NCBI GenBank assembly: GCA_964016885.1
Contig: OZ024741.1
Location: 392,026,001-392,090,000 of the forward strand
DNA from: Eledone cirrhosa
Lineage: Eukaryota
Length of the DNA: 64,000 bases
Direction of reading: 5' to 3'
Under the pieces are notes generated by a model. It searched no databases and was not told where the DNA came from. It saw only the letters and a list, made by a program, of their open reading frames with translations. Below, in pieces: positions 3,740 to 29,064 of this stretch (positions are counted from its first letter, which is position 1; the number at the start of each line of letters is the position of its first letter). The position numbers and the translations under genes are program-made.

Positions 3740-3830
3740 CTGTCTATTTCAATAGAATTGATATTTAGGTATTCAACACAACAAGAAAATTTTGACGATG
3801 ACTTGAAGTTTTCAATGACCAGCAGAGTGG
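3740..3830 (-). CDS. EPRS: EPRS coding exon 2 (ATLLVIENFKSSSKFSCCVEYLNINSIEIDS)
   Basis: Acceptor ttgtttttgttttacag and donor gtacag. 91 nt open, phase 1 to phase 2, in frame with both neighbours. Resembles the human segment GALLAVEHVK... Confidence 0.75.
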
Positions 3831-4007
3831 CTGTAAAACAAAAACAAATGGTGTATGAATATGGCATTACTCACCAAAATACTATTTTCTAATTTCATAT
3901 GCAATTTTGTAGACTTTAGCAAAAGTACAACTTGGAAAGACAGAAAGCAGAAAAATACTTCCAAGAAATAGTATAACACATCCCTCAATTGGATCTTTGA
4001 AGGCAGT

Positions 4008-4729: not shown

Positions 4730-5161
4730 TTGTTATTGTTTAGTCATAGGTCAGACAGCTTAGAAGTTTTTCAGCTGCTACCATATTGCTATTTAACATT
4801 TGCTGTCATAAGGTAGTTAACTTAGGGATTTGAGTTCCAAAAAATAAACAAAGAGTTTGAAAGATCAGGGGTTGTTGTGCAGTAGAATGAGATGAAGTGG
4901 GGACAGAAGGAATTTACAGCTGCAGAACAATTCACACACACACACCATTTGAAGTATATAAATCTATTTTGTTAGTATTTGAAGGAATTAGTTGTTTCAA
5001 TTTCAACTTAAGATGAAAATGTAATTACAAATGCAACCAAAATATATTTATACACTTCAAATGAAAACAAAATATGTTTAAATACACAAAAAGCACTGCA
5101 GCTGTAAATCCCCTAACCTGAATCAGTTTCAGATTTAAAATAAAGGAGAAGACGGCCAGAG

Positions 5162-5275
5162 TCAGAAAAGCGTTGGCAGTTGTCCTCTGCTACTTCTGCT
5201 GGAATCCGCTAGACAATAGCTTTTCAATATTCATAGCTAAAAGGCTTTCCAAATGTTTATTCGTAAACATATATG
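5162..5275 (+). repeat. dispersed repeat, copy 1 (copy 2 at 6667-6786)
   Basis: tcagaaaagcgttggcagttgtc..ggaatccgctaga..tttcaatattcatag..aatgtttattcgtaaacata is shared by both copies. Confidence 0.8.
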
Positions 5276-6020
5276 TGTTTATCTATCCTTATCATTTAAC
5301 TCCATTTTCCCTGCTAGCAAGGATTGGATGGGTTTTCATAGACCGGGTCAATAATGAAGCGTAGCTACTACCTCTCAGATGGGCCAGGGGCCTCCATCTT
5401 GTTTATTTACATTCCCCGCACTCTACCAGATGCTTAAGTGAAGAAACTTATGCCAACAAAATTTCAAGCTCAATGTAGTTCCAATCATTAAAAAAACAAA
5501 AACAAATCAATTCAGCCTTAGTAGAAACCATACAGTATTAGGAATTAGACTTTGAGTAAACAAATGCAACATGTTGTATGAATGCAGATGTACAGAGCAC
5601 ATAAATGATAATGGTAGAAACTAAAATGAAAAAAATTGTCTTACATTTTTTAACAAGAAAGATATGAAACTGAAAGACTTGTCTGTATATTACAATCTGA
5701 GCATTGACTTGAAGAATTTGCCATTAACAATTAATTTCACTGAATCCTGTATTATCAGAGACTGCCTAAGTGAACTATTTATTTTATTCGCAAAGTTGGC
5801 TTTAAAACCATTGATGATTACATAAATATGAAAAAGAAATGTAAAAACAAAATTAAGTAATTAGAAAGGGGGTAAGGAGTAAAGAAGGGCAAATCTGGCT
5901 GTATGGGAAAGTAAAGAAAAGGACTATAAATGTCATGAGAGGAAAAGGAAGGAAAAAGCAAGGACTCGTGGGCCACAGAAGAGAGGGACGGAGAAGGGAT
6001 GAGGGTAATGAGCCCTGAGC

Positions 6021-6510
6021 CTAGTGGAGGGCGGTGTTTGGGCTGCACCGCACGGACAAAACTGTAAAGGCGTTTCTGCGGACAATGGCCAGCGACACCC
6101 ACTGCAACAGCCACCCCACCTCGTGGGGCTCCTTCCCCAGGCAAGCTGTTGACATTGAGGAGGAGCTCGGCATTACTGGTTCCAAGGACGCCTGGGGTCT
6201 CAACTAGTGCGAAGAGGAAGCGGCCAGACAAGCCCCAGTATTTGTTTGTCTTCCTGTCCTCTGCAGGTCGCAGCAACTAAGTTGGAAGCGGAGAACATGT
6301 CACAACATGTGACATCCCAGATGAGGGATTTACCTCCTTCAAATGGGAAGAGGGTAATTCTTTCGAGGCCCTTCCCATCACCAGGGTTGAGGGCTGCTGG
6401 TTCCAGTTGAGATGGGAAGCCAGCTGCATCCAGGTTTTTTCTCAATATATTGTTCAGAACGGCATGTCAGGGGAACCGGCCTGCGTCATTACAGTGGCTA
6501 CAGGCCAAAC
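6021..6510 (-). mobile_element. degenerate CRE-like non-LTR retrotransposon C-terminus (restriction-like endonuclease)
   Basis: Across frames: CSHC..AGRFP*HAVLNNILRKNLDAAGFPSQLEP..DGK..ITLFPFEGGKSLIWDVTCCD / EDRKTNKY..VETPGVLG / EPHEVGWLLQWVSLAIVRRNA. This is the motif order of CRE-clade RLE domains. Confidence 0.8.
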
Positions 6511-6666
6511 TAATCAATGACATTTATGTGGTTCACACATGAGGAGGCCGAGGCATTGGGCCACTTCAATGCGAGTGCTTCCCCTGCTCTCTGCTGGAAT
6601 TTGAGACAGGCGAAAATATATGTAGATGGAGTTGTCAAGCTGGCTCAGATTGAAAGTAGAATTAAA

Positions 6667-6786
6667 TCAGAAAAGCGTTGGCAGTTGTCCCCTGCTACTT
6701 CTGCTGGAATCCGCTAGATGGCACTAGCTGCCAGCCTTTCAATATTCATAGTTAGAAGGCTTTCGAATGTTTATTCGTAAACATAC
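6667..6786 (+). repeat. dispersed repeat, copy 2 (copy 1 at 5162-5275)
   Basis: Direct repeat of 5162-5275. Confidence 0.8.
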
Positions 6787-6926
6787 CATATATCATTAGA
6801 TTTACAAAATTCACATACATATATTCACATACATGCCGGAGCGAAAACTTTAATATATATATATATTTATATATAGCTAGTTAATGGTGAATAAAATGAG
6901 TTGAACATATTCCGATTTTGATCCCC

Positions 6927-7025
6927 CGTGCATCTGATGAGAAAATCGTTCCCAGAGTGGAAGCTGGTTGCAATCAATTATGGCTGCAAGCTAGTCAGTC
7001 ATTTGCGAAACACGTGTTAAGCGTG
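6927..7025 (+). ncRNA. type I hammerhead ribozyme motif (long stem II)
   Basis: cgtgcat-CTGATGA-g..c-GAAA-cacgtg-TT-aagcgtg. Palindromic stem III, GUU site, stem I with one mismatch. Confidence 0.65.
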
Positions 7026-7181
7026 ATTACGAATAAAATATGTCAAATAATAACTTCGAACTCTCATTCGTTTTATATTTGAGAGGGTGAAGAGAGAGAG
7101 AATAGAACTGGTGTTTTAAAAAAATCTTATTCAAAGAGTGACAAAAGTCAAATAAATATGAAAACAAAACCACAAACATAA

Positions 7182-7500
7182 TCTATATATATAAAACTGT
7201 AGTTGTCTGTGTGTGTGTGTGTCTCTCTCTCTCTCTCTCTCTCTGTGTCCTCATTTTTGCAAAGTCTATACAAATCCACATTTCTACTCCGATTGACTTC
7301 AAACTTGCATTTATATATTCCGTGCGGTCTAAAGATACTAACTGCAGCTTTTATTTATCAATTTTCTGTTGTTAAAAGGGTGTTAGGTGCCGGTTATCGA
7401 TATCCGTCGAGCCCTTATAATATCTGTCTGTATGTCTGCATAATGACATTCTGACGAACACGTCATTGCTGATGTATTATCTTCGCTACATTAACACACA
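7182..7500 (+). mobile_element. non-autonomous Helitron 5' part
   Basis: A|TCTATATATATAAAA start followed by (GT)/(CT) microsatellite, as in many non-autonomous Helitrons. Candidate 3' end at 16279. Confidence 0.55.
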
Positions 7501-7517
7501 CATATATATACATATAT

Positions 7518-7859
7518 CATCATCATCATCATTTCATTTTACGTCCGCTTTTCCCTGCTTGCAAGGGTGGACGGGAACTGATTCTGGCTTGATTTCTACA
7601 GCTGGATGCCCTTCTTAACACCAACCTCATTTACAGTGAGTGCTGGGTGCTTTTTTTGCCGTGGCACCTCCACAACCACTTTGCAGTGGAATGATATGGA
7701 CCCCAGTCCTATCATCTCATTTCTACAGCTGAGTAAACTGGAGCAATGTGAAATAAAGTGTCTTGCTCAAGGAAACAACACATCACCCGGTCTGAGAATT
7801 GAACTCACAACCTTTCGATTGCAAGCCCAATGCTCTAACCACTAAGCCATGTGCCTCCA
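7518..7859 (-). mobile_element. tRNA-derived SINE with RTE-derived 3' tail
   Basis: A box TGGCTTAGTGG and B box GTTCAATTC; body CCTTGAGCAAGACACTT; tail nearly identical to the 3' end of the RTE at 13853-13912; (GAT)n end. Confidence 0.85.
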
Positions 7860-7877
7860 TATATATATATATATACA

Positions 7878-7987
7878 CATCATCATCATCGTTTAATGTC
7901 CATCTTCCACGCTTGCATGGGTTTGGATGTGAATTTTTCCACTTGAGGCAAGATTGGTTGTCTTGCTCGTATAGGACTGTCTGGCTA
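7878..7987 (-). mobile_element. RTE 3'-terminal fragment
   Basis: Matches 8309-8422; (CAT)n on the plus strand. Confidence 0.85.
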
Positions 7988-7989
7988 GA

Positions 7990-8225
7990 TTTTGGATAGA
8001 GAACTGTTCAAGTATGGAGACGCAGAAGAAACCTTCTTCAAAAAGATGCTATATTTAATATTTTTGTCTTTCAAGGACCATATGAGTTCTGAGAGAGCCG
8101 TGTTGGTTCTTTTAAGTTTGTATTTAAAAGACGAATGATGGTTATAAAGACGAGCTTTAAAAGAGGTGGAAGTGGAGCCAAAATAGGTGAAGGAATTGGT
8201 GTCAGTTATAACTTTACATTCGTAA
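7990..8225 (-). mobile_element. Penelope-like GIY-YIG endonuclease fragment
   Basis: YECKV..TYFGST..FKARLYNHHSSF..TALSELIWSLKD, homologous to the EN at 13120-13340. Confidence 0.8.
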
Positions 8226-8236
8226 TATATATATGT

Positions 8237-8308
<72 letters not shown>

Positions 8309-8310
<2 letters not shown>

Positions 8311-10156
8311 TCATCATCATCATCATCGTTTAACGTCCATGTTCCACGCTTGCATGGGTTTGGACGGGAGTTTTCCCACTTGAGGCAAGAGTGGTTGTCT
8401 TGCTCGCATAGGACTGTCTGGCGGGTTTTCTACGGCTGGATGCCCTTCCTAACACCAACCACGTTTACAGTGTGGACTGGGAGGTTTTTACCGTGTTACC
8501 TACACGGCCACATTACAGCGTGGACTGTGTGTTTTTTTTTGTTGTGACACTTACACGACCTCATTTATTTAGGACTGGATGTTGTGGTACCAACATAACT
8601 TTACATCGAAAGAGGTGGTGTGGATGGGGTAAGGGTGTATTTTTGTTAAGAGGTGCCTACTGACTGTAGGTTTCGCTTTAGGCAAGGTGGGTCTTCTGTA
8701 TTACTATGTAGCGCCAAAGATCTCGGTCCAGTGACATTGTCTTGGAGAGGTGTAAGTGTATGAGGTCGGAATTTATCAAGTCGTCCCAGGTTTTTCTGGG
8801 TCTGCCTACTCCGTGGCTACCGTCTATTTTTATCACCCTGCACTTTTTTATACAGCTGTCGTCTTTCATGCACATCACGTGACCGTACCAACATAGTCTT
8901 CCCTCAAGTAAACAACATCTGATCCCTCTAATTCCTAATTTCTCCCTTAGTTCATTTATGCTTTGCCGTTCACGTATATTACTATTACACATCCAACGGA
9001 GCATGCAAGCTTCGTTTCTCTCCAGTCTGCGTATATCCTCTGCACACAATGCCCAAGTCTCACTGCCATGTAACATTGCTGTTCGTATGCAGGCATCATA
9101 CAGCCTGCCTTTCATTTTTAGAGAGAACCATTTAGCAGCCAATAGTGGTATAAGCTCTCTGAACTTTTTCCATCCTGTTCTGACTCTAGCTACTGTACTT
9201 TCAGAGGACCCTCCACCACTGCTGATTTTGTCACCCAGGTAACGGAAGGTGTCCACTATTTCTATAGAACCATCTGTGCAATGGAAGGAGCTAGTATTCT
9301 GTGGGCACTTGCTGCTACTTATTTCACCTGAGCACTGGACACATATAAAATCTATATTCTTAGTTAGCTTACCTGTGATCCCACTACATCTTTTATGCAC
9401 CCATACTTTGCATTTGGGACATAAAATGGAGTTTCTGCCTACTCCTTTCCTACACACTGAGCATGGCCATTTCCCAGACGGGACCAGTGTCCTATTTTCC
9501 TTCCTACAAACTAGAACTTTAGTCTTAGACAGGTTAATTTTAAGGCCTTTTGATTCTAGGCCGTGCTTCCATGTTTGGAATTTCTTCTCTAGTTCAGCCA
9601 TTGATTCAGCTATGAGCGTTAGATCATCTGCGTATAGGAGTTCCCATGGGCAGCCGGTCTTGAACTTCTCTGTTATAGCCTGAAGGGCAATAATAAATAG
9701 TAGGGGGCTAAGGACGGAGCCCTGATGAACACCAACTTTTATGCTAAACTCTTCACTATATTTGTTGTTAATTCTAACCTTGACTGTTTCTTTATACATG
9801 GCTTGTATAGCTCTCACAAGCCATTCGTCAACACCTAGTTTTCTAAGAGCCCACCAGATAATGGAACGGGGGACTCTGTCGAAGGCTTTCTCCAAGTCAA
9901 CAAAAACTAAGTATAGGGGTTTACTTTTAGCTAGGTACTTCTCCTGTAGTTGTCGTACAATGAAAAGAGCATCTGTAGTACTTTTACCTGACACAAACCC
10001 GAACTGCCTTTCATCTAGATCAATTCGCTCTCTGATTAGTTGCGCTATTACTTTTTCTGTGACCTTCATGACCTGGTCAATTAATTTAATGCCTCTATAG
10101 TTTTCCCTATCTAGGGCATCTCCTTTACCCTTGTAGCAATTAATGATGCTGCAGCT
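8309..10156 (-). mobile_element. 5'-truncated RTE LINE (open RT ORF with PHD-like insert, 3' UTR, (GAT)n tail)
   Basis: QFGF..STTDA, FVDLEKAFD, GVHQGSVLSP, LLYADD, GRPRKTW. The N-terminal part of the ORF-track protein is microsatellite read-through. Confidence 0.95.
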
Positions 10157-10246
10157 ATATATACATATATACACATATAAATATATATATACAAACACAT
10201 ATATATATACATATACAAACACATATACACATACAAACACATATAT

Positions 10247-11150
10247 AGTGGTGGAGGGTGCTCTGAAAGAACAGTAGCTAGAGTCAGAACGGGATGGAAA
10301 AGTTCAGAGAGCTTATACCACTATTGGCCGCTAAAGGGTTCTCTCTAAAAATGAAAGGCAGGCTGTATGATGCCTGCATACGAACAGCAATGTTACATGG
10401 CAGTGAGACCTGGGCATTGTGTGCAGAGGATATACGCAGACTGGAGAGAAACGAAGCTTGCATGCTCCGCTGGATGTGTAATAGTAATATACGTGAACGG
10501 CAAAGCATAAACGAACTAAGGGAGAAATTAGGAATAAGATGGATCAGATGTTGTTTACTCGAGAGAAGACTACGTTGGTATGGTCACGTGATGCGCATGA
10601 AAGACGACAGCTGTATAAAAAAGTGCAGGGCGATAAAAATAGACGGTAGCCAGACCCAGAAAAACCTGGGACTTGATAAATTCCGACCTCACACACTTAC
10701 ACCTCTCCAAGACAATGTCACTGGACCGAGATCTTTGGCACTACACAGTCATACAGAAGACCCGCCTTGCCTAAGCGAAACCTACAGTCAGTAGGCACCT
10801 CTAACAAAATACACTCCCATCCCACTACCTCCACCCCATCCACACCACCCCCTTAAATGTGAAGTTATGTTGGTACCACAACATCCAGCTCGAAACAAAT
10901 GGGGTCGTGTAGGTGTCTAGAAAAAAAACACACACACAGTCCACGCTGTAATGTGGCCGTGTAGGTAACACGGTAAAAACCTCCCAGTCCACACTGTAAA
11001 CGTGGTTGGTGTTAGGAAGGGCATCCAGCCGTAGAAAACCCGCCAGACAGTCCTATACAAGCAAGACAACCAATCTTGCCTCAAGTGGGAAAACTCCCGT
11101 CCAAACCCATGCAAGCGTGGAAGATGGACGTTAAACGATGATGATGATGA
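10247..11150 (+). mobile_element. 5'-truncated RTE LINE, inverted relative to 8309-10156
   Basis: KFRELIPLL..LHGSETW..RLRWYGHV; same 3' UTR; (GAT)n then (TA)n. Confidence 0.95.
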
Positions 11151-11326
11151 TATATATATATACACATATACATATATATAAATATACACATAAAAGTATA
11201 TGTATATATATACACACACACATATATACATACATACATACACACACATATATATATATGCATACATACACACACACATATATATGTATCTGTATGTATA
11301 TATATATATATATATATATTTATTTA

Positions 11327-13808
11327 GGTTTGTTGGTTCACCACTGGATAGAACTGGTCATTCCGTATGGTCAACCTTGATGTAATATTATGGAGAGCAC
11401 TCAACGTAATGCAACTCACCCGTCTTCGTTTGTGTAGTTGGTGGTGCGAGTACGGAGTTAATTATTATAAAATAACGGGAGGCTGAACTGGTGTAATTCC
11501 TTAAAAGGTTAATATAGATGGCGAGCCCTAGCTTTTGACGGCAAAATTACAGGCACCAACAACACCTTCAACCTGAAATTGAGAGCCTACCCTCCTAAGG
11601 TAACTGAACTTGCTCCTTTCGAGACGGACCTTCTTGACTTAGTCGCTAACATTTCCTTTCGCAAACACATTAACACCTTTCAAACTAAACTCAGAAATGA
11701 TATTAAGAAATTTAGGTCTTCTAATAACACCTTCGTTCTTTCTGACAAAACTAATAATATTTACGAAGTCGACAACACCACTTTCCGCCACCTGGCCCAT
11801 AAATCTATTACTTCTAAATATAAGAAAGCTAACCCTATGGTCTACCACGACATTAATACAGAAGCCAAGGAACTTGCCGCCGACCTTAAGGTAGATAAAA
11901 AGCTACAATCTCTAGCTAAGCGGGAGGTGTTCCTCACCCTGAAAGATCACAAGGTAGACTTTACTTCTAACCCCACATGTAGACTAATAAACCCGGCACG
12001 CACAGATATGGGACTAGCAGTAAGGCCATACTTAGAAACATAGTTAAGACCATTAGGACCAAGTCCAACCTGCCTCAGTGGGAGAACAGCGACTCCGTAA
12101 TTAAGTGGTTTAACTCCTTAAAACCCCAAAAAGCGAAGTTCACACAGTTTCACATTGTCGATTTTTACCCGTCGATCTCAGAGACCCTGTTAAACAAAGC
12201 GTTGGACTTCGCTACCACTTATACCACCGTCGATGGTTTAGACAGGGAAATCATCGCTCACTGCCGGAAAACCCTCCTCTTCAACGATGGAGTAGCCTGG
12301 GCAAAGAAGTCTACAACTTCAGACCTATTTGACGTCTCCATGGGATCGTTTGACAGTGCTGACGTATGTGACTTGGTTGGCCTTTTTATCTTAGACATTA
12401 CGTGTTAGATTCCCGGACTTCCACACGGGAATATACCGTGACGATGGACTGACTTTATCGAGCCATAAAAGTGGTCACAACCTCGACCGTTTTAAAAAGG
12501 ACTTAGTTTCTACCTTCAATGAGTTAGGACTTACGATAACAGTAGCCACCAATCTCTCTAGCGTGGATTTCTTAGACATTAATTTAGACCTTCGCACACC
12601 CACCCACAGACCCTTCCATAAGCTAAACGAGAAACTCAATTACATTCACAAGGACTCGTGCCACCCTCCCACTGTTTTTAGAAACTTCGTTAAGAATATC
12701 AGTACTAGAATCTCAAACCTCTCCTCTAATAAGGCTATATTTGACAGGGCGGCACCCTACTATAACATGGCGTTGGCTAACAGAGGCTTCTCACAACCTA
12801 TCACTTACTCTCCCACTAGCAACAACACCATTAAGAAAAGTAAGCGCAACAATAGACAAACTATCTGGTTCTCTCCTCCCTTCTCACTCAACGTTAAAAC
12901 CAATGTAGGAAAAAAATTTCTAGCCCTCTTAGATAGACACTTTCCCATAGGTCATAAATACCGCTCCATCTTTAACTGACACAAAGTTAAACTAGGATAC
13001 TCCTGCGCTAAGAATATGAAGGCCCACATTACCAGCAGCCCTAGGAGCAACACCCCACCAGGGTGCTCTTGCCGTAAGCCTGAAGCTTGCCCCCTTCAAC
13101 AGCAATGCAACACACCAGCTGTAATTTATGAAGCTGTGGTCACTTCCAACCGACCAAACGAACCACAGGAGGTCAAATCCTATGTGGGCATGGCGGAGGG
13201 CCGATTTAAGGAATGTTTCCTGAACCATAAGTCTACCTTCAAGTACCCGGACAGACGTTCATCCACAAAACTCGCGAGCCACGTATGGTCCCTCAAGGAC
13301 TCAAGTATAGACTACTCCATTCAATGGAAAGCCATCACTAAGTCAAGCCATGTGCAAGGGGAAATCCGATGTGTGGCTTATATATTGACGAACGAATAAC
13401 TATTCTAAAGAGATTACGCAATAGTGATTGCCTAAACACGAGATATGAATTTTTCACACATTGTCCACACGTCGCCAAACACCTATTGCATAACTACAAG
13501 GCTCCGGACTGATTCTTTGTAAAAAAATTTTCAACCTAAAAACTTTTCGGACTTTCGCAGTTATCTCCCTTACACCTCTCGCACGCAGTCTAGTATTGCC
13601 TGTGTGAAGTGGTCGGGTTTCTGCGCATGCCCGTTCGTAAGGTTGTCCTTCCTGTTCCTATAGCCATGCCCATTCCGAGCTGAGGATCCGGTAAGGTGAA
13701 ATAATTGTTTTCGGTATGGTGAACTAACTGTTGTGTAACCACTTCTACCTAACTCGTCCCATGGACTGAGTGCTCTATCACTACGGATATTACCTTCCAG
13801 TATTCCAC

Positions 13809-13811
<3 letters not shown>
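11327..13811 (+). mobile_element. degenerate Penelope-like element (RT, Cys-rich linker, GIY-YIG), probably Naiad-like
   Basis: SDKTNNIY, LKDHK..CRLINP, IVDFYPSI, VSMGSFDSA, GIYRDDGL, FLDI, CSCR..CPL..C, VIYEA..SYVG..F..H. Several stops and frameshifts; flanked by (TA)n. The 5' boundary is approximate. Confidence 0.9.
13670..13719 (+). ncRNA. type I hammerhead ribozyme in the Penelope 3' region
   Basis: ccattccgag-CTGAGGA-tccggtaaggt-GAAA-taattg-TT-ttcggtatgg. Stem I 9/10 paired, quasi-palindromic stem III. Confidence 0.8.
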
Positions 13812-13852
<41 letters not shown>

Positions 13853-13856
<4 letters not shown>

Positions 13857-15349
13857 TCATCATCATCATCATTTTACGTCCGCTCTTCCCTGCTTGCAAG
13901 GGTGGGACGGGTCTTATTCAGCACAGCATCTCTCCACTTGTCACGGTCCTTCGTCATCTCCACCGTGAGCTTCATCGATCTGAGGTCTGTTCTCACCACC
14001 TCCGCCCATGTTTTTCATGGTCTACCTCTACCACGTCTTCCTTCAAATGGCATTTCCCGGCACTTCTTCACCCATCGGTCATCCTCCATGCGCATCACAT
14101 GTCCATACTACCTCAGTCTCCTCTCTCACACACTACATTCTATCCCTCTTAGACACAGTTTCTCAACACATTCATGCTGGGTCGTTCACGCACATTGACA
14201 CTGCACATCCAACGGAGCATGCTTGCCTCATTTCTCTCCAGCTGTCGCATATCCTCTGCAGTTGCTGCCCATGTCTCACTACCATGCAGCATTGCGCGCC
14301 TCACACAGGCATCATATAACTGACCTTTCGTACGCAGGGAGAAACCCTTCTTCGTCAGCAGAGGAAGCAGCTCCCTAAACTTCTTCCAACCCATCCTTAT
14401 TCTAGATACTATGGCCTCGGAACACCCCCCTCCCATGCTAATCTGATCTAGGTACTGGAAGCTATCCACCACTTCTATAGCACCCACCTGCATTTGAAAA
14501 ATGTGTCTATCAATGCGACTTCTACTGTCTAATTTCCCTGTACATCTACTGCATACGTATTTCTCCCTACCTGTTAGTTTGCCTGCTATCTCGCTACATC
14601 TCTTGTGTACCCAGAATCTGCATTGTGTGCATTTTATAGAATTTATGCCAGTTCCTTTTCTGCATATCGAACATGGCCATTTCCCTGACGGAATCAGAGT
14701 TTTGTCCTCTTTTCTACTCATCAACACTTTTGTCTTCGCTAGGTTCACTCTCAGTCCTCTTGCTTCCAACTGTTGTTTCCATAGCCAGAATTTATTCTCC
14801 AGCTCCTCTACTGATTCTGCTATAAGAACCAGATCGTCAGCATAGAGAAGTTCCCATGGACAGCCAGTCTTAAACTCCTCTGTTATGGTTTGGAGGACTA
14901 TAATGAACAAGAGCGGGCTGAGGACCGAACCTTGATGTACTCCTACTTGTATCTGGAATTCCTCACTAAACTCCATTCCAACCCTGACTTTACTGACAGT
15001 ACCTCTGTACAAAGTTTGCACTGTCCTCACAAGCCATTCCTCAACACCTAGTTTCCTTAGGGACCACCAGATGACAGATCAGGGTACCCTATCAAAGGCC
15101 TTCTCTAGGTCAACAAAGGCTAAGTATAGTGGCTTATTTTTCTCTAAGAACCTCTCTTGTAATTGTCTCACCAAGAAGAGGGCATCTGTTGTACTCTTCC
15201 CAGGCACAAAACCAAACTGCATCTCATTTAGTTTGACCCTTTCTCTGATTAGTTGTACTAATATCCTTTCTGCCACTTTCATAACCTGATCCATCAGTTT
15301 TATACCCCTATAATTGCTCTCCAGAGAATCCCCTTTACCTTTGTAGCAA
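13853..15349 (-). mobile_element. 5'-truncated RTE LINE of a second subfamily (short 3' UTR)
   Basis: CYKGKG..QFGF..DLEKAFD..GVHQGSVLSP..LLYADD plus a C4HC3 insert; frameshifts; (GAT)n tail. Confidence 0.92.
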
Positions 15350-15373
15350 TATATATATATATATACACATGAA

Positions 15374-15551
15374 TGAAGTAATTCCATCGGAAAAGTCCAG
15401 GAAAAAAGAGTGCTCTATGTATGCAACAGAGCTTAATTATTATTATTATTATTATTATGTAATAAACAACATAAGGCAATTATTCCATTTACCAGTGGTT
15501 TCTTAAAAGCAAAAGGTTTTGCTTTCAATCCTCAGAATGAAAAATCCTGGT
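15374..15551 (-). mobile_element. short hammerhead-bearing repeat (same family as 19230-19530 and 20030-20272)
   Basis: Near-identical to 19230-19390; bounded by (TA)n. Confidence 0.8.
15483..15542 (-). ncRNA. type I hammerhead ribozyme motif
   Basis: tttcatt-CTGAGGA-ttgaaagcaaaa cc ttttgcttttaa-GAAA-ccactgg-TA-aatggaa; all three stems pair. Confidence 0.85.
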
Positions 15552-15559
15552 ATATATAT

Positions 15560-16279
15560 ACACACACAGATACATTGTAGGTCGCTTTAACCCGTCTTTT
15601 ATTATTCAAAAAACTTCTTGTCAATAAACATTAACCCTTTGTGCGCGATTTATCTAACTGTAGACCAACAAATACCAACTAAACGAAGCGTTGACAAGAA
15701 TGATGGCGAATGAATCTTCGAGGTAAGCAGTTTCCTCCCAAGCTGTTAGTTCACGCCGGATTCTCTGCTACACCTTTTCGTAATAATACCGAACAACGTA
15801 CTGTTGGTCACTCCTTCCTCCAAAAGCCGTACAAAGCGGACATGTGAATCGGGTAGATGGATTGGGTGCAAATCTACACCAGGCCTATGCGAGAAATTCG
15901 CAAGGGACTGCACCGAGAGAGATAGAGAGAAAGAGTAACTTAGTGGAAAGAGAGCGAATGAACTTTTGAGGTAAGTAGCCTACGCCTTACTGCTATGGCA
16001 CTGGAACCTTCTGCCAACTTAACCTGTGACTTTCTCTTTCACATTTACTCCAAAAGGCCAAAACAGAGGAGTATGAAAAGAAGGGGCTCAACAATATTTC
16101 TATGAACAATGCACGTAGACAGCTAAACTGTACTTTCAACTTCTTAATTTTCTCCAAATAAAACAAGTTTCCTGTCGGTATATTTTCGTGAGTTTTTAAC
16201 AGGCACCCACAAATAAACGTTTAACTGGGGGTGGTATTACCAATGTTCTTACCCGTGCAACGCCGGGATACACTGCTAG
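15560..16279 (+). mobile_element. non-autonomous Helitron 3' part
   Basis: Subterminal hairpin CCCGTGCAACGCCGGG, then CTAG|T at 16276-16280. Confidence 0.7.
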
Positions 16280-16790
16280 TTCTACAATAAAAATTAACAA
16301 CACGAAACAAACGCAGTTTATTTTTGTTGTAGATGCAATAATTCATTTTTTTTTTTGTTCCTTTTAATTAAATTTTCCTTTCGTTTCTCTTATTACTGGC
16401 GTTTAGTCCAAGGTCGCGTGTAGCCAAACAAAATGATAAAAAGTAAAAGTGGATGGTTTTATTGAAAGGTCGCACAGAATAGGTTTCTTAATGCGAGCAA
16501 CCAGTTTTTAAAACTATTTTTTTAATGAGAAAATATATTTTTTATTTAAGAATTTGGCTGCTATTTCAAGCAAATCAAACGATCTCATTGGCCATGCAAA
16601 TTAATAATCAGAATCGATTGAAAAAGAAGATAAACACGAAGAGTAAAAATTATCGACAACTTATAAATATGGATTTAGATATAAAATATAGATTTTAAAC
16701 CTGTATAAATAACGAGATTAGCAGTTTTCTTTTTAAAAATGCAAGTTTTTGTTAGAGCTAACTGAATAACACGTGTAAGCTGCACCTCAA

Positions 16791-16910
16791 TACCAGTGAG
16801 CTAGCAAAGGAAGCTCTGTGGTCACTAGGCTTGCTAGAAATAGCAGCAGTATCTCTCCCAAATCACAATCTACCATCTTCAAAAAAGGACACAATCGATA
16901 ATGTAGTCGG
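16791..16910 (+). repeat. interspersed repeat fragment (gctagaaatagcagc motif, also near 2670, 2702 and 16553)
   Basis: Recurrent motif within the window. Confidence 0.5.
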
Positions 16911-17021
16911 ACGTACACCATTCGGCGAAAAAGAAAAACGAGATGGTAATGGATGAATGCTTTTGATCACACACACATCCACATTATATATATAACAAAG
17001 GTGTGTATATATATATATATA

Positions 17022-17228
17022 TATAATATAAGAATGAAGGAACAAAGCGTCAGTGTTGCATCATAACATATTACATATGTTTCACTATCGATCAGCTCGA
17101 GGAACGATCTATTACAGATCGAACCTGACTCTGGAATCGAAAGATCCTCAGATATGCCTCAGTATGTAAGCTCGTCTCTGATTTTGTGCAACACTGAGTC
17201 TTTGTTCCTTTATTCTTATACTATTATA
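17022..17228 (-). mobile_element. small inverted-repeat-bounded element carrying a hammerhead (Penelope-derived/retrozyme-like)
   Basis: Arms ataagaatgaaggaacaaagcgtcagtgttgca / tgcaacactgagtctttgttcctttattcttat enclose the ribozyme. Confidence 0.7.
17066..17157 (-). ncRNA. type I hammerhead ribozyme motif (extended stem II)
   Basis: gcatat-CTGAGGA-tctttcgatt..gatcgatagt-GAAA-catatg-TA-atatgt. Palindromic ACATATGT stem III, GUA site. Confidence 0.8.
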
Positions 17229-17299
17229 CTCTGCTCTACACGAGCATCAAGTGCTCACCCGGCATACCGCCTACGGGCGCAATTTTCTTGCACCTATAC

Positions 17300-17375
<76 letters not shown>

Positions 17376-17445
17376 AGGGACTAACGCGAGTTTCTGACTC
17401 CGTTACTTCATTTCGATATATATATATATATATATATATATTCAT

Positions 17446-17589
17446 TTTATTAAGGCTAAATAGTGAGAGTTGTTACTCTGGAGTCCCGGCTGTTAATCAC
17501 AGGGTCAACAGAACTCTTCTTGTCTGATGACCCTGTGATAAATAGACGAAACTCCAGAGTAAAAAAACTCACTATTTAGCGTTAATAAA
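17446..17589. repeat. ~67-bp-arm foldback made of two opposite hammerhead-like copies
   Basis: The left arm is the imperfect reverse complement of the right arm; ~10-nt loop. Confidence 0.85.
17520..17565 (+). ncRNA. degenerate type I hammerhead motif
   Basis: ttgt-CTGATGA-ccctgtgataaatagac-GAAA-ctccagag-TA. Stems I and II are imperfect here and better paired in the mirror copy. Confidence 0.55.
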
Positions 17590-17653
17590 TAAAAATAATA
17601 TTTAAACTCTACTTCGGTATTGAGACCCCTTTTCTTTCAGCCGTCAACCACAT

Positions 17654-17691
<38 letters not shown>

Positions 17692-17703
17692 TTATATATA
17701 TAA

Positions 17704-17789
<86 letters not shown>

Positions 17790-18970
17790 GTGTGTGTATT
17801 TGCGCGATCAAGGCTGACCTAAGGTTAAAAAACAGTTTACTTTTAATGCTTGAAAACTTTATTTAACTATATATGGCAGACTTAATCCGTTTCCCGGTTA
17901 AACAACACAACCTGGTATTTATTTTGGTACCTTTAAGGGAGTCAACACATTGTTGCAAGCACTCGGGCCAGGTCGGTTTGAGGATACCTTTCTCCCTCAT
18001 CTCAACAATCTTGGAGGCTCTGGAAGTGATCATAAGTATTGCCCTTCTCTACTAACAGATTAAAAAATAAGGGCTCCGCTAATCATTAAAATGTGATAAC
18101 ATTTTTGGGAAAAAAATAAATAACAGGTTGGGAAGTTATTCCGAAAATCTGTCCAGATAAATAACAGCAAATACCTGTTTCCACATCAAACTAAAATTTA
18201 GGTGAGCATTAATGAAAACAAATGTCCAGATATTGTATTAGATAAAGAAACACTATCGCAAATGCTCGGTTTGAAATGAATGTTGGCAAAAACCATATAT
18301 TAGGCTATGTATATACGCGTTTTGTGTACGCAAGCATATTTATTAATAAATGTGTGGATAGAATGGAATTTGAGATGAAAGTAAGTGAACGTTGAAAAGT
18401 TTATGATTGCATCATCACGAAGCTGGGCGGGGGATACTATAGTATAACTTCTTAAATACCTCTCTACATTGAAATTCACACGCATATGAAATATTTATAA
18501 CTGTTATACACCGACACGTCTGATATATATATATATCAGACGTTTCATATATATATATATACGTATATCAGACGTGTCATATATACATATATAACGATTT
18601 TCATAAACATGAAAAATTATAACTTCTCAATTTACGTAAATTTCGAGTTGGGTTATTGAGATTTATTTATGATAACATGTAAGTCGAAATATATATCGTA
18701 TATATTGCATCTAGTTTATATTCTCAAATAGAGTTTTATGATATTCATTTAAAGCCTTAAGATGGATCACAGAGAAGAAATAACTTGTAGTTTATCTCAC
18801 ATCTAACTTGGAATTATATATAGAAAGTATTTTGAAGTAGATCAGAAAGTGAATAATTTGACGTCAAATTACAACATAAAACACATAATGGATTTCTATA
18901 CATTTGGATTTAGGAAATTTTATAATACTATATAATTGTTAAAAACATCATGATGATAAAAGATGCTTAC

Positions 18971-19013
18971 CGACAGCAGCATTTTGGGAATCGATATTCA
19001 CTTTGAGAGCCAT
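18971..19013 (-). CDS. EPRS: EPRS coding exon 1 (MALKVNIDSQNAAV + phase-1 G)
   Basis: ATG at 19013, 43 nt, followed by donor GTAAGC. Phase 1 joins exon 2 in frame. Length and character resemble the N-terminus of metazoan EPRS as recalled (MATLSLTVNSGDPPLG in human). Confidence 0.7.
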
Positions 19014-19174
19014 TACAAAAACACACTTTATCGCAACAGTCCACAATGTGGAATAAAATAATTGTGTATAAGGGAAATAAGTCTTGCTGTAAGGGCAGAC
19101 AACTATAACAACTCTTGACCTAATGAGTGAGCGTCAACGTTTACTTCTATGATAATCCCTCTTACATCTAAGTC

Positions 19175-19231
<57 letters not shown>

Positions 19232-19323
19232 AAGTAATTCCGTCGGAAAAGTCCAGGAAAAAAGAGTGCTCTATGTAGGTAACAGAGCTTAATAGTTATG
19301 TAATAAACAACATAAGGCAATTA

Positions 19324-19380
19324 TTCCATTTACCAGTGGTTTCTTAGCAAAAAATTTTGCTTTCAATCATCAGAATGAAA
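19324..19380 (-). ncRNA. type I hammerhead ribozyme motif (3-nt deletion in stem II)
   Basis: tttcatt-CTGATGA-ttgaaagcaaaattttttgctaa-GAAA-ccactgg-TA-aatggaa. Confidence 0.75.
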
Positions 19381-19529
19381 AAATCCTGGTCTGTTTATTG
19401 AATTTGGATTTTAAAAAACAAAAATGCAATCTATATGAAAGTGAGGCTGGAGAAGGAAGAAGGAAAGGAAAAATAAAATAAAAACACACATGCAAACACA
19501 CACACACACACACACAAATATGCATACAT

Positions 19530-19614
<85 letters not shown>

Positions 19615-19705
19615 CACATACATATATGTGTATATATATACACACATACACATACATATACACATACATATATACAACCACACACACATATATACATACA
19701 TATAT

Positions 19706-19766
<61 letters not shown>

Positions 19767-20180
19767 TACACATACACATACATAGCCATACACATGTACA
19801 TATACATACATACATACATACATACACACAATCATACCTATATACACACGTACATACATACACATACATAAATGCATACATATGCATGTACAAAATTAGA
19901 AAAATATACACACACCTCTACATGTATGTGTATATGTATGTGTATGTGTGTATATATATACACATATATATGTGTATATGTGTGTGTGTATGTATGAGTG
20001 TATGTATATATATATATATATGTGTGTGTGTATGTATGCATATTTGTGTGTGTGTGTGTGTGTGTTTGCATGTATGTTTTTATTTTATTTTTCCTTTCCT
20101 TCTTCCTTCTCCAGCCTCACTTTCATATAGATTGCATTTTTGTTTTTTAAAATCCAAATTCAATAAACAGACCAGGATTT

Positions 20181-20240
20181 TTTCATTCTGATGATTGAAA
20201 GCAAAATTTTTTGCTTTTAAGAAACCACTGGTAAATGGAA
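20181..20240 (+). ncRNA. type I hammerhead ribozyme motif (intact)
   Basis: tttcatt-CTGATGA-ttgaaagcaaaa tt ttttgcttttaa-GAAA-ccactgg-TA-aatggaa; canonical core, GUA site. Confidence 0.88.
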
Positions 20241-20333
20241 TAATTGCCTTATGTTGTTTATTACATAACTATATATATATATATATATATACAGTATATT
20301 AACAAATGGAAACTATATTTATAAAAGTATATT

Positions 20334-20398
20334 TATTTCATTATACATATTTCAAGGACACCAAGTTAAATTATGGTGTGCTTTCATCAGATAAAATA
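20334..20398 (-). ncRNA. type I hammerhead ribozyme motif (different family)
   Basis: tattttat-CTGATGA-aagcacacca..tggtgtcctt-GAAA-tatgta-TA-atgaaata. Stem I 8/8, stem II 9/10, AUA site. Confidence 0.8.
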
Positions 20399-20899
20399 TA
20401 ACATAGACCAGTTTTATAAATAAATATTGACATACCCTTAAAAAATGCAACCATTACTGTTGGAAGCTCCCAGATATATATAAATATAATACTAGACCAC
20501 ACGTTCACTTCAAAATATTTTTTGTAAATCATGTTCACTTAAAAATAATGTTTAAATAATTAAAATATACACATAATGTGAAATGAAACTGTGTGTGTAT
20601 GTATATATATAAATGTGTGTGTGTATACATATGTAGCGAATAGATGTATTCTTTGCAGGATGAATGATAAAAAGAATGATGCAAGAATTGTGATGATGAC
20701 AATGTTTATTTTAAAATAATAAAATTCATTTGTTGGTACATTGAATATTGAGTAATAAAATCGTGACAGCAATTATCACTACATTAATTTTCTTACTAGC
20801 TACTTCAAGCTAGCATGAATGCACGTATGAAATAAAACATAGTAGAATTCTGTTACACATACATATATATGTATGTGTGTGTGTATATACATATGTGTG

Positions 20900-21177
20900 G
20901 ATGTCAACTATTGTCCACTCAGTCTAATTAGCTGCATTGCCAAACTGATGGAATCCTGTGTCAGCGAAACACTTTGGAGCTTCTGGAACTCTCTCAGTCT
21001 TATCCGGCCTTTGCAATTTGAATTTATCCCTAACTCCAGCTGCTGTGATCAACTTATCAAGTTTCTTGAAGACATCACCCGGATCACTGATGGCAGCTCA
21101 TGGGTGGATGTTGTTTACCTTGTCTTTGCTAAAGCTTTTAATTCTGTGCCACACAAAAGACTTATGGCAAAACTATA
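20900..21177 (+). mobile_element. CR1-like RT internal fragment
   Basis: NYCPLSLISCIAKLMES..VDVVYLVFAKAFNSVPHKRL. Confidence 0.85.
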
Positions 21178-21657
21178 GATCAAAGTATATCCGTTGAAGG
21201 TTTAACAATATTGCTTTAGCTTTTATAAAGTAGTTTTACAGTCTCTGATTTTACAGAACAAAGAAAAATTGATACTATTTGAAATTAATCTACCCTCCAG
21301 CTTTTATCCATATACTACTTACAGACCGTACTAACGGAGCAACACTTCAGAAGCAATGTTATGCGGTATATTGCTGTGTTTCAGATGACGTCCTTTGGAG
21401 CTGAAAAATATCATACTGACTATGGTTATTTCACATTTAAAATCCAAAGCCAATGCTACCATTTAATCGGCAGTTTACTCTCCCAACCTAATAAGGAAGT
21501 TTTTTTTTTATGTCTCTCTCTCTCTCACGCACACACACCCACATTACAGTCTTACCTCATATCAGACAACACATCCAAATACAGTCGTTTTCTCTTTTAT
21601 CCGTCTTCTCTTAACTGTTCTCCCGGACGAAGCCAGGTACCTCAGCTAGTATTATAT

Positions 21658-22904
21658 AGGCACCTCTAACAAAATACACCCCCGTCCCACTACCCCCACC
21701 CCATCCACACCGCCCCTTTCAATGTAAAGTTATGTTGGTATCACAACATCCAGGCCGAAACAAATGAGGTCGTGTAGGTGTCACAACAAAAAAATACACA
21801 GTCCACGCTGTAATGTGGCCATGTAGGTAACACGGTAAAAACCTCCCAGTTCCACACTGTAAATGTGGTTGGTGTTAGGAAGGGCATCCAGCCGTAGAAA
21901 ACCTGCCAGACAGTCCACGCTGTAATGTGGCCGTGTAGGCAACACGGTAAAAACCTCCCAGCCCTACACTGTAAATGTGGTTGGTGTTAGGAAGGGCATC
22001 CAACTGTAGAAAACCCGCCAGACAGTCCACGCTGTAATGTGGCCGTGTAGGCAACACGGTAAAAACCTCCCAGCCCCACACTGTAAATGTGGTTGGTGTT
22101 AGGAAGGGCATCCAACTGTAGAAAACCCGCCAGACAGTCCACGCTGTAATGTGGCCGTGTAGGCAACACGTTAAAAACCTCCCAGCCCCACACTGTAAAT
22201 GTGGTTGGTGTTAGGAAGGGCATCCAACTGTAGAAAACCCGCCAGACAGTCCACGCTGTAATGTGGCCGTGTAGGCAACACGGTAAAAACCTCCCAGTTC
22301 CACACTGTAAATGTGGTTGGTGTTAGGAAGGGCATCCAACTGTAGAAAACCCGCCAGACAGTCCACGCTGTAATGTGGCCGTGTAGGCAACACGGTAAAA
22401 ACCTCCCAGTTCCACACTGTAAATGTGGTTGGTGTTAGGAAGGGCATCCAACTGTAGAAAACCCGCCAGACAGTCCACGCTGTAATGTGGCCGTGTAGGT
22501 AACACGGTAAAAACCTCCCAGTTCCACACTGTAAATGTGGTTGGTGTTAGGAAGGGCATCCAACTGTAGAAAACCCGCCAGACAGTCCACGCTGTAATGT
22601 GGCCGTGTAGGCAACACGGTAAAAACCTCCCAGTTCCACACTGTAAATGTGGTTGGTGTTAGGAAGGGCATCCAGCTGTAGAAAACCCGCCAGACAGTCC
22701 ACGCTGTAATGTGGCCGTGTAGGCAACACGGTAAAAACCTCCCAGCCCCACACTGTAAATGTGGTTGGTGTTAGGAAGGGCATCCAGCCGTAGAAAACCC
22801 GCCAGACAGTCCTATACGAGCAAGACAACCAATCTTGCCTCAAGTGGGAATACCCCCGTCCAAACCCATGCCAGCGTGGAATACGGACGTTAAACGATGA
22901 TGAT
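21658..22904 (+). mobile_element. RTE 3' UTR-only copy with internal tandem amplification
   Basis: Matches the 3' UTR at 10793-11150; ends in (GAT)3. Confidence 0.9.
21799..22806 (+). repeat. 112-bp tandem repeat, 9 copies
   Basis: Units start with cagtcc at 21799, 21911, 22023 ... 22695. The unit is single-copy in the other RTE tails. Confidence 0.95.
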
Positions 22905-23082
22905 TGTTCAAGTGAGGAAAGTTGGTTGATCAAATAGTCTAATGACTTCGGTCGTAAACAGACGTACAGCACTCTACGACTTGTATTCCTTAAAGTATTA
23001 TCAATAATGTTATCAACTGGAGTGTCAATATTATAAAGAAGAGAGATGGTTTTAAATGTACATCCTATGTTTATTATATAAT

Positions 23083-23153
23083 CCTGTTATACACATTTTG
23101 AAGATGTCAAAGTGATTGCATAATAACACATTGACGTGTTCTCTTCAGACAGG
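23083..23153 (-). ncRNA. degenerate type I hammerhead motif (GAAA>AAAA)
   Basis: cctgt-CTGAAGA-gaacacgtcaa..ttgacatcttc-AAAA-tgtgta-TA-acagg; perfect stem I. Confidence 0.65.
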
Positions 23154-23789
23154 TGCAAAGTTGCAGTGTTTTTCTTTTGATATGCTACCTTGTCGGATTA
23201 TACATTTTCCACCTAATTAAAAGAACAATAATGGAACAGGTCAGAGGTTTGTGTAGTACAGAGTATATCAAGACTTTCAGCTAATAGGGACATCTTCAAT
23301 AGCAAAGCTAGTCACTACACTGATGCATTAGATAGGGCTAAATACAAGGATAAAATAGAATACATAAGAAGAGATAGAATTAATTACACACTCATACAAA
23401 AGCATAAACAAACTCATAGTACAAACACTAGTCAGGACACACTAACTCAAAATAAACCCAGAGGCACCCAATGCAAACAGAGATTGAACCAACTCAGCAT
23501 GCCTCAAATATAGTATTACAACTAGCACACGCTTAACCAGAAGGCAGGATACAAACAAACCAGTCCAAGGATACTAAAACCACATCACAACTAACTACAT
23601 CACTAGACATAACACTTCCTCCTCAGCAAAGTATGTTGAATCTAATGAAACTAGGCCACAACAGAACAATATTAACAGGAGACACCAGGTTATTAACAAA
23701 TGCTCTGACCTCTTTAATTATAGTATGCATATAATATCTAAAACTTTCCTGCGATTATATAGTTAGCATTTAATAACCTCTACCTACAC

Positions 23790-24809
23790 TTAATGCTGGT
23801 ATTACATACCTGCTTCTCAAAAGTGGTGGGTACTTCCTTCTGTACCAGCTTTCACTCTTCTTTCAATTCTGTCTTAACAATGGTGCTACTCTGGAGCAGT
23901 AGAAAACTGTCAGTGTCATTCCTCTGTTCAAAAAGGGTGACCGCATGTCGCTGTCAACTATCATCCAGTCAATTTTACTAGCTGCATTGACAAACTGATG
24001 GAATCCTGTGTCAGCGAAACGCTCTTGAACTTCTGGAATTCTCAGTCTTATCCGACCCTCACAATTTGGATTTATCCCTAACTCCAGCTGCTATGATCAA
24101 CTTATTGAGTTTCTTGAAGACATCTCCCAGATCACTGATGGCGGCTCATGGGTGGATGTTGCTTACCTTGTCTTTGCTAAAACTTTTAATTCTGTGCCAA
24201 ACAAAAGACTTATGGCAAAACTCTCTGCAATGGGTGTGAAGGATAATCTTTATAACTGGTTGAAGTCCTTCATTCTCAGTCGAAGAGAGGTAGTCACGGT
24301 TCTAGGACAGCATTCTTCACCATATGAGATGTCAGCTGGTGTACCACAGGGATCTGTTCTTGGTCCCCTTTTGGTTGTGGCATATATTAATGACATAGAT
24401 GCAAACTTAAAGAATCCCACAGTACTAAAATATGCAAATGACATCAAGCTGTACCTTGAGATAAAAAGGACAGATCTTTCTACAGATCTTTCCTGCAATT
24501 AGACCTGGACATAATGCAGCAATGGATCACAGACTGGCAACTCAAGCTGGCTGTGGACAAGTGTACCCCTATGCATTTTGGGAGGAAAAACCCAGCGTCC
24601 ACATATTCCCTCTACAACCTCCATCCTTCCTGAAATTTGCCAATACTACACCTGATAGCCGCCCTCCATACATATGCACACATGTATATTATGACTCATA
24701 CACGGTTCACTTTCCTGACATTTGTATATTATTCTATGTACTATACATGCACCTTTGATGTGTTTTAGTGCCCCTGAGCACTGTACACAATAATTTCATT
24801 ATTATTATT
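23790..24809 (+). mobile_element. CR1-like LINE fragment with an internal deletion near 24620
   Basis: GVPQGSVLGPLL, KYANDIKL. Jumps from the RT thumb to the last codons and 3' UTR; (ATT)n tail. Confidence 0.9.
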
Positions 24810-25199
24810 TTATAATCACTAAACCTATAAAATTCAGTGTGTTATATATGCGTTGCCTGCATCTCCTTCTCTACTACTGCATAGCTCTGAAATACGATTA
24901 CGTAGCCTTGAAATTAAATAAATAAATAAGTAAATAAGTAAATTTAATTCTTTAAAATATATGAACCAGAACGACTGACCTCTCTGGCATTTTGATACAT
25001 TAACCTACCTATCATCCCAAGAATTTTACTAAGAATAGTATCTCCATCACCCTGTTTACAAAAATATAGCCATGTATATCATATGACAACTGGAGTGGAC
25101 TGATACTACCACACTCCTAACTAAGAGCATATCATAAACAAAACATTACAACTTTGCACCTGTATGACAAGATCACTTTGATATCTTCAAAATACATAT

Positions 25200-25370
25200 A
25201 ATTGTTTCTACTTTTGGCACAAGGCCAGCAATTACCCAGTACATTACTGGTACTTTATTTTATCGACCCAGTAAGGATGAAAGGCAAAGTTAACCTCGGC
25301 GGGATTTGAACTCAGATTGTAAAGGGACATAACTCTTTGCGTCAAAGCATGGTGTCAGACCCTCTACTGA
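25200..25370 (-). mobile_element. SINE-like repeat fragment (also 27040-27205, 28015-28063, 63568-63795)
   Basis: Recurrent ctggtactttattttatcga..gaaaggcaaagttaacctcggc..gatttgaactcaga, which contains a B-box-like GTTCAAATCC on the minus strand. Confidence 0.65.
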
Positions 25371-25445
25371 TACATATAATATATAATAAACAGAGTATGT
25401 ACATTTAAAACCATATCTCTTCTTTATATATATACATTTCCTTCG

Positions 25446-25448: not shown

Positions 25449-25528
<80 letters not shown>
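25449..25528. repeat. (TA)n microsatellite (one of many in 6850-33045)
   Basis: Direct reading. Confidence 0.95.
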
Positions 25529-25529
<1 letters not shown>

Positions 25530-29060: not shown

Positions 29061-29064
29061 TAAA

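Follow-up and report, generated by a model that had tools for sequence, protein, structure and literature searches.

The window analyzed here is a stretch of 64,000 nucleotides from the octopod Eledone cirrhosa (assembly GCA_964016885.1, contig OZ024741.1, positions 392,026,001 to 392,090,000 of the forward strand), in which nine hammerhead ribozyme motifs lie around the 5' end of EPRS. The gene is encoded on the minus strand, and its exon at the left end of the window shows 73% identity over 45 aa to Octopus EPRS; five of the nine motifs are in intron 1 and four are upstream of the gene. Six of the motifs can be traced to parents with reverse transcriptase (RT) and GIY-YIG endonuclease (EN) frames, which upholds the link to Penelope-like elements (PLEs) drawn in the original prediction, a reading of the bare sequence. 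Because positions 33860-62909 are a 48-bp satellite, statistics on the window are restricted to its first 33.9 kb.

Nine hammerhead motifs in seven repeat families

All nine motifs are found at the places and on the strands first proposed, with CUGANGA cores at 6934+, 13680+, 15535-, 17151-, 17524+, 19373-, 20188+, 20390- and 23148-. Their description as type I with a short (quasi-)palindromic stem III is also borne out, as 9/9 sites show stem I, stem II, stem III and the U-H triplet. The triplet (U16.1-H17) is present in every motif, stem I is open, and the family majorities are fully paired. GAAA is present in eight motifs; motif 23083 reads CAAA, most of the 25 copies of its family have GAAA, and the CAAA is read as CpG decay. 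Motif 17520, with a degenerate stem II, and motif 23083 had been called degenerate, rightly, and the family majorities restore both. Two additional degenerate copies are located at about 25155-25205 (+) and about 17470-17510 (-).

The nine motifs form seven repeat families (F6927, F13670, F17066, F17520, F20181, F20334 and F23083), since 15483, 19324 and 20181 belong to one family and the latter two are the arms of one insertion; the estimate of about seven unrelated contexts was thus correct. First-look candidate copies, which are lower bounds and not copy numbers, amount to 175 and 294 for F6927, 3592 for F13670, 1785 for F20181, 3428 for F17066, 1860 and 2365 for F17520, 254 for F20334 and 760 for F23083. 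The suggested per-family consensus, taken as the majority of the 24-30 best copies, yields a complete hammerhead in every family. Perfect stems are regained in F6927, stem II in F17520, and GAAA together with a perfect TACGTA palindrome in F23083, and the F13670 majority has CAATTG; the window copies are decayed relative to these majorities.

It was also noted at first that stem sequences differ between families while pairing is kept, and covariation is seen among F20334 relatives (n = 14), in which 8 of 21 pairs are changed on both sides; none of 500 shuffles reaches 8 pairs and slid controls give at most 5. The set consists of the window copy and 13 of the 22 homology matches in a sample of sixty 10-kb stretches, taken at spaced positions on 18 large contigs of the 3.0-Gb genome, with second arms, truncated copies and one reverse match omitted. 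Relatedness among the sequences inflates such counts, and the result is to be taken as support, not as a probability.

The self-duplex energies of stem III range from -2.2 to -10.3 kcal/mol, and seven 8-10-mers folded alone give no hairpin. In these models the short palindromic stem III is predicted to be able to dimerise, and dimer dependence of the window hammerheads is plausible.

Table 1. Positions of the EPRS exons, the hammerhead-bearing insertions and the satellite in the window
Feature	Position	Strand	Remarks
EPRS exon 3	179-275	-	
EPRS exon 2	3740-3830	-	
F6927 element stub	6898-7067	+	
F6927 hammerhead	6927-7025	+	Old family, copies 72-80% identical; predicted cut after 7018
Decayed Hydra-type PLE	11466-13811	+	RT and C-terminal GIY-YIG frames 11513-13500 with frameshifts/stops; 3' end at (TA)n
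F13670 hammerhead	13670-13719	+	Inside 3' end of PLE 11466-13811; U.U at 10.1/11.1, as in published Hydra motifs
F20181 Hydra PLE stub, 5'-truncated, long 3' end	15373-15559	-	Hammerhead 15483-15543, sense to EPRS intron 1
F17066 two-armed insertion	17018-17329	.	Minus arm 17018-17188 with hammerhead 17066-17157 and short end; plus arm 17189-17329 with long end
F17520 two-armed insertion	17438-17655	.	Plus arm with hammerhead 17520-17568 and long end; inverted arm 17438-17512 with broken core
EPRS coding exon 1	18971-19013	-	
F20181 3' UTR (untranslated region) two-armed insertion	19230-20272	.	One insertion event, two hammerheads: minus arm 19324-19381 (long end), plus arm 20180-20240 (short end); microsatellite between arms is element sequence
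F20334 Hydra PLE stub, 5'-truncated	20296-20488	-	Hammerhead 20334-20398; TA run common to stub and F20181 arm
F23083 old Hydra-like PLE, inverted arm	22903-23188	-	Hammerhead 23083-23153, apparent CpG decay
F23083 PLE, forward arm	23232-25433	+	RT-thumb remnant; tenth, degenerate hammerhead at about 25155-25205; 3' UTR split by LINE (long interspersed element) fragment and SINE (short interspersed element)
48-bp satellite	33860-62909		About 616 copies, 91% match

Coding parents and the Hydra clade of PLEs

The original prediction had regarded the motifs as parts of short non-autonomous elements and only one of them as part of an element with RT. This does not hold, since four families (six motifs) reach RT and GIY-YIG frames upstream. 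In F13670, RT/EN matches lie upstream in many of 25 copies besides the window PLE, and the upstream sequence in common runs from 6 to 1499 nt as a stepwise truncation ladder. F20181 has RT and EN frames upstream in loci L031-L033; in L001, L005, L008 and L016 an EN end lies upstream at a distance of 1.4-1.5 kb, and in L009 the hammerhead is followed in tandem by the next open reading frame (ORF). One long copy of F20334 led to 20 loci, 19 of them with RT/EN upstream and 15 with the hammerhead 1.5-1.7 kb downstream. EN remnants of F23083 are 0.4-0.7 kb upstream in 2 of 25 loci (L184 and L171); L162 is collinear with window positions 23270-25433, and the hammerhead at 23083 is the inverted arm of the PLE remnant 23232-25433. 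A single ORF with RT followed by a C-terminal GIY-YIG domain is seen in F13670, F20181 and F20334, and remnants of it in F23083. A reading of F20181 as a 1.2-kb non-autonomous tandem unit was rejected, as the ORF end lies further upstream of the upstream copy.

The marks of the Hydra clade given in the portions of Craig et al. (2021; PMC8557442) cited here are RWK, DKT, a CxCX5C linker, the lack of CCHH, and CxxC and CxH around E/N, and the frames in E. cirrhosa resemble these C-terminal EN+ PLEs in all of them. RWK and DKT are in L033 (F20181), RWR in L151 and DKT in the window PLE (both F13670); these N-terminal marks were scored for F20181 and F13670. The CxCX5C linker is found in the window PLE, L033, L292 and L184, CxxC..E together with CxH in L033, L292 and L151, and CxxC..E in L171. 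Penelope/Poseidon marks are absent from the frames, which have no CCHH in EN and DKT in place of DKG, and a Penelope/Poseidon label is therefore rejected. The same study describes (TA)n targeting, 5'-truncated and inverted copies with a one-sided tail, and 3' hammerheads with a palindromic stem III and a frequent 10.1/11.1 mismatch, as observed here, and its supplement lists Hydra-1_Obim of Octopus bimaculoides along with such hammerheads. In contrast to the "small number" reported there, E. cirrhosa has many more families and far higher copy numbers; two families have 3' UTRs of 1.5-1.7 kb that are largely compound microsatellite, tails are 67-91 nt rather than 30-40, and F20181 bears two tandem sense hammerheads where the S2 table gives one sense motif per family.

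Similarities also extend to the minimal hammerheads in pseudo-LTRs (LTR, long terminal repeat) of metazoan PLEs, for which the cited part of Cervera and de la Pena (2014; PMC4209133) reports that a genome has many divergent families and that most motifs are single ones left by truncated PLEs, along with pairs on opposite strands 100-700 bp apart and a palindromic stem III with proposed dimers that cleave weakly. The motifs in E. cirrhosa differ in a stem III of 6-8 nt, in a stem II that is in some cases branched (60-66 nt), in the frequent replacement of G10.1-C11.1, and in number, about 2x10^5 against 2,000-9,000 there with different descriptors. Metazoan non-LTR retrozymes, as far as described in the passages used of Cervera and de la Pena (2020; PMC7229834) and Li et al. 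(2026, bioRxiv), share type-I hammerheads, PLE ancestry and dimer-aided cleavage; they are ORF-free head-to-tail units of about 150-450 nt, whereas four families here have coding parents. Retrozyme-like head-to-tail arrays are absent from the 24-30 top loci of each window family. Our literature search returned no survey of octopus PLE hammerheads beyond the cited parts of PMC8557442, and the consulted portion of the PMC13282606 main text makes no mention of ribozymes.

Very likely, therefore, six of the nine motifs represent 3' ends from four Hydra-clade PLE families, and the other three are likely ends of older families of the same kind. Several points weigh against this. Neither Pfam (8 frames) nor PDB (one frame) gave a protein name, and the clade was assigned by motifs, not by an RT tree. 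The F13670 element is about 2.4 kb; those of F20181 and F20334 are about 4 kb owing to their long 3' UTRs, over the <3 kb described for Hydra, which is a tendency and not a strict rule. In the minimum-energy structures of the nine window copies (z -0.17 to -2.07) a full monomeric hammerhead is never formed, and cleavage and transcription are hypothetical. Finally, two or three upstream walks gave no coding parent for F6927, F17066 and F17520.

These three orphan families could instead be true non-autonomous, retrozyme-like PLE derivatives mobilised in trans by Hydra RT, an explanation we consider possible but rather unlikely. It would account for the lack of an ORF in the walks; such derivatives are described in the cited part of bioRxiv 10.64898/2026.07.22.740005, and the spaced sample contains a 9-unit array of about 468 nt per unit with another hammerhead (L432). 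On the other hand, neither a fixed 5' end nor head-to-tail units are seen in the orphan families, their copies are 65-90% identical, so that the parents may be merely rare and broken, and over 0.2-0.9 kb upstream they lead into sequence rich in microsatellites, as in the F20181/F20334 UTRs. Upstream tracing reaches about 0.9 kb in F17066, 0.5 kb in F17520 and 0.2 kb in F6927, and the number of candidates falls on the way (3428, 62 and 8 in F17066; 2365 and 94 in F17520), a thinning like that of 5'-truncated ends. Further upstream, F17066 and F17520 grade into compound microsatellite, a trait that the long UTRs also have. Supposed fixed 5' ends of F20334, F17066 and F6927 were refuted by longer copies. 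The longest orphan copies were also examined within 13 regions of 9.9 kb; nearby PLE fragments are of other families, on the other strand or not collinear, and they do not match each other. From the pattern of their copies, the orphan families are likely old Hydra UTR ends. The motifs as a whole then are known biology, that is, new families of Hydra-clade PLE ends.

Two side observations concern F17066. About half of 25 copies (L042-L060) have a 12-nt duplication starting at the cleavage site, by which the 3' strand of stem I is doubled, and eight identical F17066-containing loci (L322-L329, G000:C12:17.02-17.48 Mb) at a spacing of about 60 kb form a large tandem segmental duplication.

Insertion anatomy and the tandem pair of F20181

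Insertion at (TA)n, part of the original prediction, is confirmed in the six families scored, where the 3' ends of nearly all copies abut runs of TA or related dinucleotides. The 3' ends fall at fixed points in two classes, at +37/+104 from the anchor motif in F20181 and +48/+139 in F20334. Inverted second arms lie upstream in 14/24 F20334, 8/25 F23083 and 5/25 F13670 loci; these counts were read by eye, since automatic counts include microsatellite matches, and the F17520 set is biased by a two-armed query. Each of the window insertions 19230-20272, 17018-17329 and 17438-17655 combines one short-ended with one long-ended arm, and the cleavage site is spanned intact in every copy. A type-III reading of 17520 was abandoned because its long stem is the inverted second arm, as was the reading of 17018-17329 and 17438-17655 as miniature inverted-repeat transposable elements (MITEs) because of their unequal arms and varying junctions.

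Truncations at the 5' end and fold-back junctions concentrate at a single spot in F20334 and F17520 loci (L111-L135 and L216-L245). In F20334 this spot is a CCGG palindrome, which lies about 80 nt upstream of the core; in F17520 it coincides with the outer edge of stem I. Much compound TA/TG/CA microsatellite belongs to the element 3' UTR (window 19480-20090; L001, L023, L129). It is copied along with the elements, and these PLEs thus spread simple repeats, their own (TA)n targets among them.

Inverted 5'-truncated copies with a one-sided tail are a PLE pattern (PMC8557442, in part), and the cited portion of Frangieh et al. (2024; PMC11167929) attributes the one-sided tail of PAc Poseidon in Anolis to reverse transcription that begins at two internal sites of uncut RNA, the main template. 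The insertions here agree with PAc in the two internal starts that give the tail, in AT-rich targets and in an uncut template; they differ in clade, and their RT starts precede the start codon (L009/L033) instead of lying inside the ORF. We propose that the element protein would nick (TA)n and that reverse transcription would start 40-180 nt downstream of the hammerhead, at either of two fixed sites; the template would be RNA left uncut, or rejoined, at the hammerhead. The RT would traverse the hammerhead first and mostly halt soon after. Such a start just 3' of the motif, with its early stop, would let hammerhead-rich stubs accumulate, and priming from both strands would produce head-to-head arms. 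Hammerheads of active parents are predicted to cut weakly, by palindromic stem III dimers or with help of the element protein, and may process tandem transcripts.

Alternatively, the folds might be kept mainly as signals for PLE-protein binding and positioning near the RT starts, with negligible cleavage in the cell. In the cited part of PMC11167929 there is no cleavage without protein, catalytic mutants insert normally and no RNA-seq ends occur at the site; low activity even as dimers is reported in PMC4209133 (in part), and EPRS intron 1 has two intact motifs in sense orientation. This alternative is nevertheless unlikely, as unrelated families keep all catalytic core bases as well as the U-H triplet, and where subfamilies differ the change is at the free position N7.

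It is clear, too, that the 3' UTR of F20181 carries two hammerheads, A about 0.33 kb past the stop codon and B at the terminus, separated by 1.1-1.46 kb in 26 of 28 linked pairs; the window holds only B copies of the pair (15483, 19324 and 20181). Among 139 distinct copies (170 before duplicate removal; 6 unassigned), position 17 is G in 66/68 A copies and A in 64/65 B copies. In minimal hammerheads G17 slows cleavage at least 300-fold, possibly via a C3-G17 pair (PMC3884650, cited in part). Copy A seems to be a short-ended B stub that stems from an old self-insertion. Two F20181 subfamilies are about 7% apart in the UTR, and the 92-nt block of A has 2 changes between them, against about 6 expected (P about 0.05). 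One of the two is at the free position N7, also the site of the sole core change in B.

These observations could be explained by a built-in asymmetric double hammerhead, in which A, whose catalytic strand is preserved, would co-fold with B, only B would be cut and a G17-C3 pair would lock the site of A; this model is tentative and, in our judgment, has the weight of probability against it. When A and B are constrained to a dimer, the energy is 8.7 kcal/mol lower than that of two monomers in 7/7 loci. In unconstrained folding of subfamily 1, 8 of 13 loci form the stem III duplex, 7 have an open core at the B site and 7 a G17-C3 pair; the duplex probabilities are 0.88 and 0.63 in two loci that had folded as duplex. 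Against the model, none of 8 subfamily-2 loci folds as the A:B duplex, and 40 of 49 shuffled spacers also give it, so the duplex follows from any two such copies. Moreover, a distal pair of stem II is lost through the other A change, B once trimmed adopts a monomer fold, the A copies were gathered with two A-type queries, and G17 is equally expected if selection merely silenced an accidental duplicate. A literature search, not exhaustive, found no description of a tandem G17 or inactive-partner double hammerhead.

Genome-wide density and the setting of EPRS

Each of two strict type-I descriptors recovers five of the nine motifs, as against at most one match in any of the block-wise dinucleotide shuffles, the control named in the original prediction (997/1000 and 496/500 shuffles with no match); together they recover six, and 13670, 17520 and 23083 fail both. 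The other check named there, against Rfam, turned out negative, with no hammerhead among 96 Rfam matches at E<=10. The sixty sampled stretches contain 43 descriptor matches against at most one in each of 20 shuffles. Forty stretches have none and one has 10, including the L432 array (L432:547-4298), whose nine head-to-tail units each bear a type-I hammerhead with a CTAG stem III; the array is retrozyme-like and its family is absent from the window. The density is about one intact motif per 14 kb, or 2.1x10^5 genome-wide (bootstrap 1.1-3.5x10^5) and 1.7x10^5 with the array collapsed. For comparison, the cited parts of two reports give, with other descriptors, 126,247 motifs in axolotl and >6,000 in Acropora (PMC7229834) and about 9,000 in Xenopus (PMC4209133).

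With the descriptor used for the sample, the window has 5 matches in 33.9 kb, and the chance of at least 5 in 3-4 sampled stretches is 0.12-0.19. All five matches are packed into 4.9 kb, a rather high local number, but come from four insertions; TA runs make up 3.4% of both window and background. The idea of an unusual cluster must therefore be dropped, since the density of the window is within the genome background. A host regulatory system acting on EPRS transcripts, suggested by five motifs in intron 1 and four upstream and by the two intact ones that are sense to the pre-mRNA, is very improbable given this background density, the mixed orientations and the decay of the window copies. Chance matches in AT-rich, palindromic DNA, in spite of a bare CUGANGA count near expectation (19 versus 13.0 +/- 3.5 in shuffles) and the lack of an Rfam match, are hardly credible and were ruled out by the shuffles of window and sample and by the compensatory changes in F20334 relatives, besides the perfect stems restored by family majorities. 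The closeness of the hammerheads to EPRS looks incidental; under the Hydra-clade explanation the window copies are passive debris, and their location near EPRS reflects TA-rich non-coding DNA.

Several other repeats share the window, and the retroelement proteins of this genome have close relatives in Argonauta. A frame at 33566-33860, just before the satellite, resembles a PLE RT end of another clade; a Pfam search of it gave no match. An RTE-like LINE is present at 8300-11150 and 29050-32600, and a 112-bp tandem array of nine copies, derived from the 3' UTR of this LINE, is at 21798-22812. A 216-nt inverted repeat (25525-25740 / 26272-26487), 99% complementary, 531 nt apart and adjoining a TA run, is MITE-like or another two-armed insertion. 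Inside EPRS intron 1, a GC-richer stretch (15600-16000, +) holds two ATG-bearing segments with GT donor-like ends (15724 and 15970), which may be first exons of an antisense gene nested there. An unclassified 130-170-nt repeat occurs in two related copies (5122-5290 and 6660-6790) with a GC-rich fragment between them, and a tRNA-like SINE head is at 7792-7849 (Rfam tRNA, 31 bits).

For the E. cirrhosa genome, hammerhead stubs are everywhere, which matters for repeat annotation, as fold-back stubs resemble MITEs or SINEs and Rfam misses them; with about 2x10^5 motifs it would rank first in hammerhead density among the animal genomes of the papers compared. Several octopod families are added to a small, recently named PLE clade, and young, near-identical families become available for tests of PLE hammerhead function. 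If the double-hammerhead model were true, a single F20181 element would need no tandem neighbour for dimer cleavage, and a G17/A17 pair working as predicted would be a naturally occurring double hammerhead with one cutting site, on which the dimer model could be cleanly tested.

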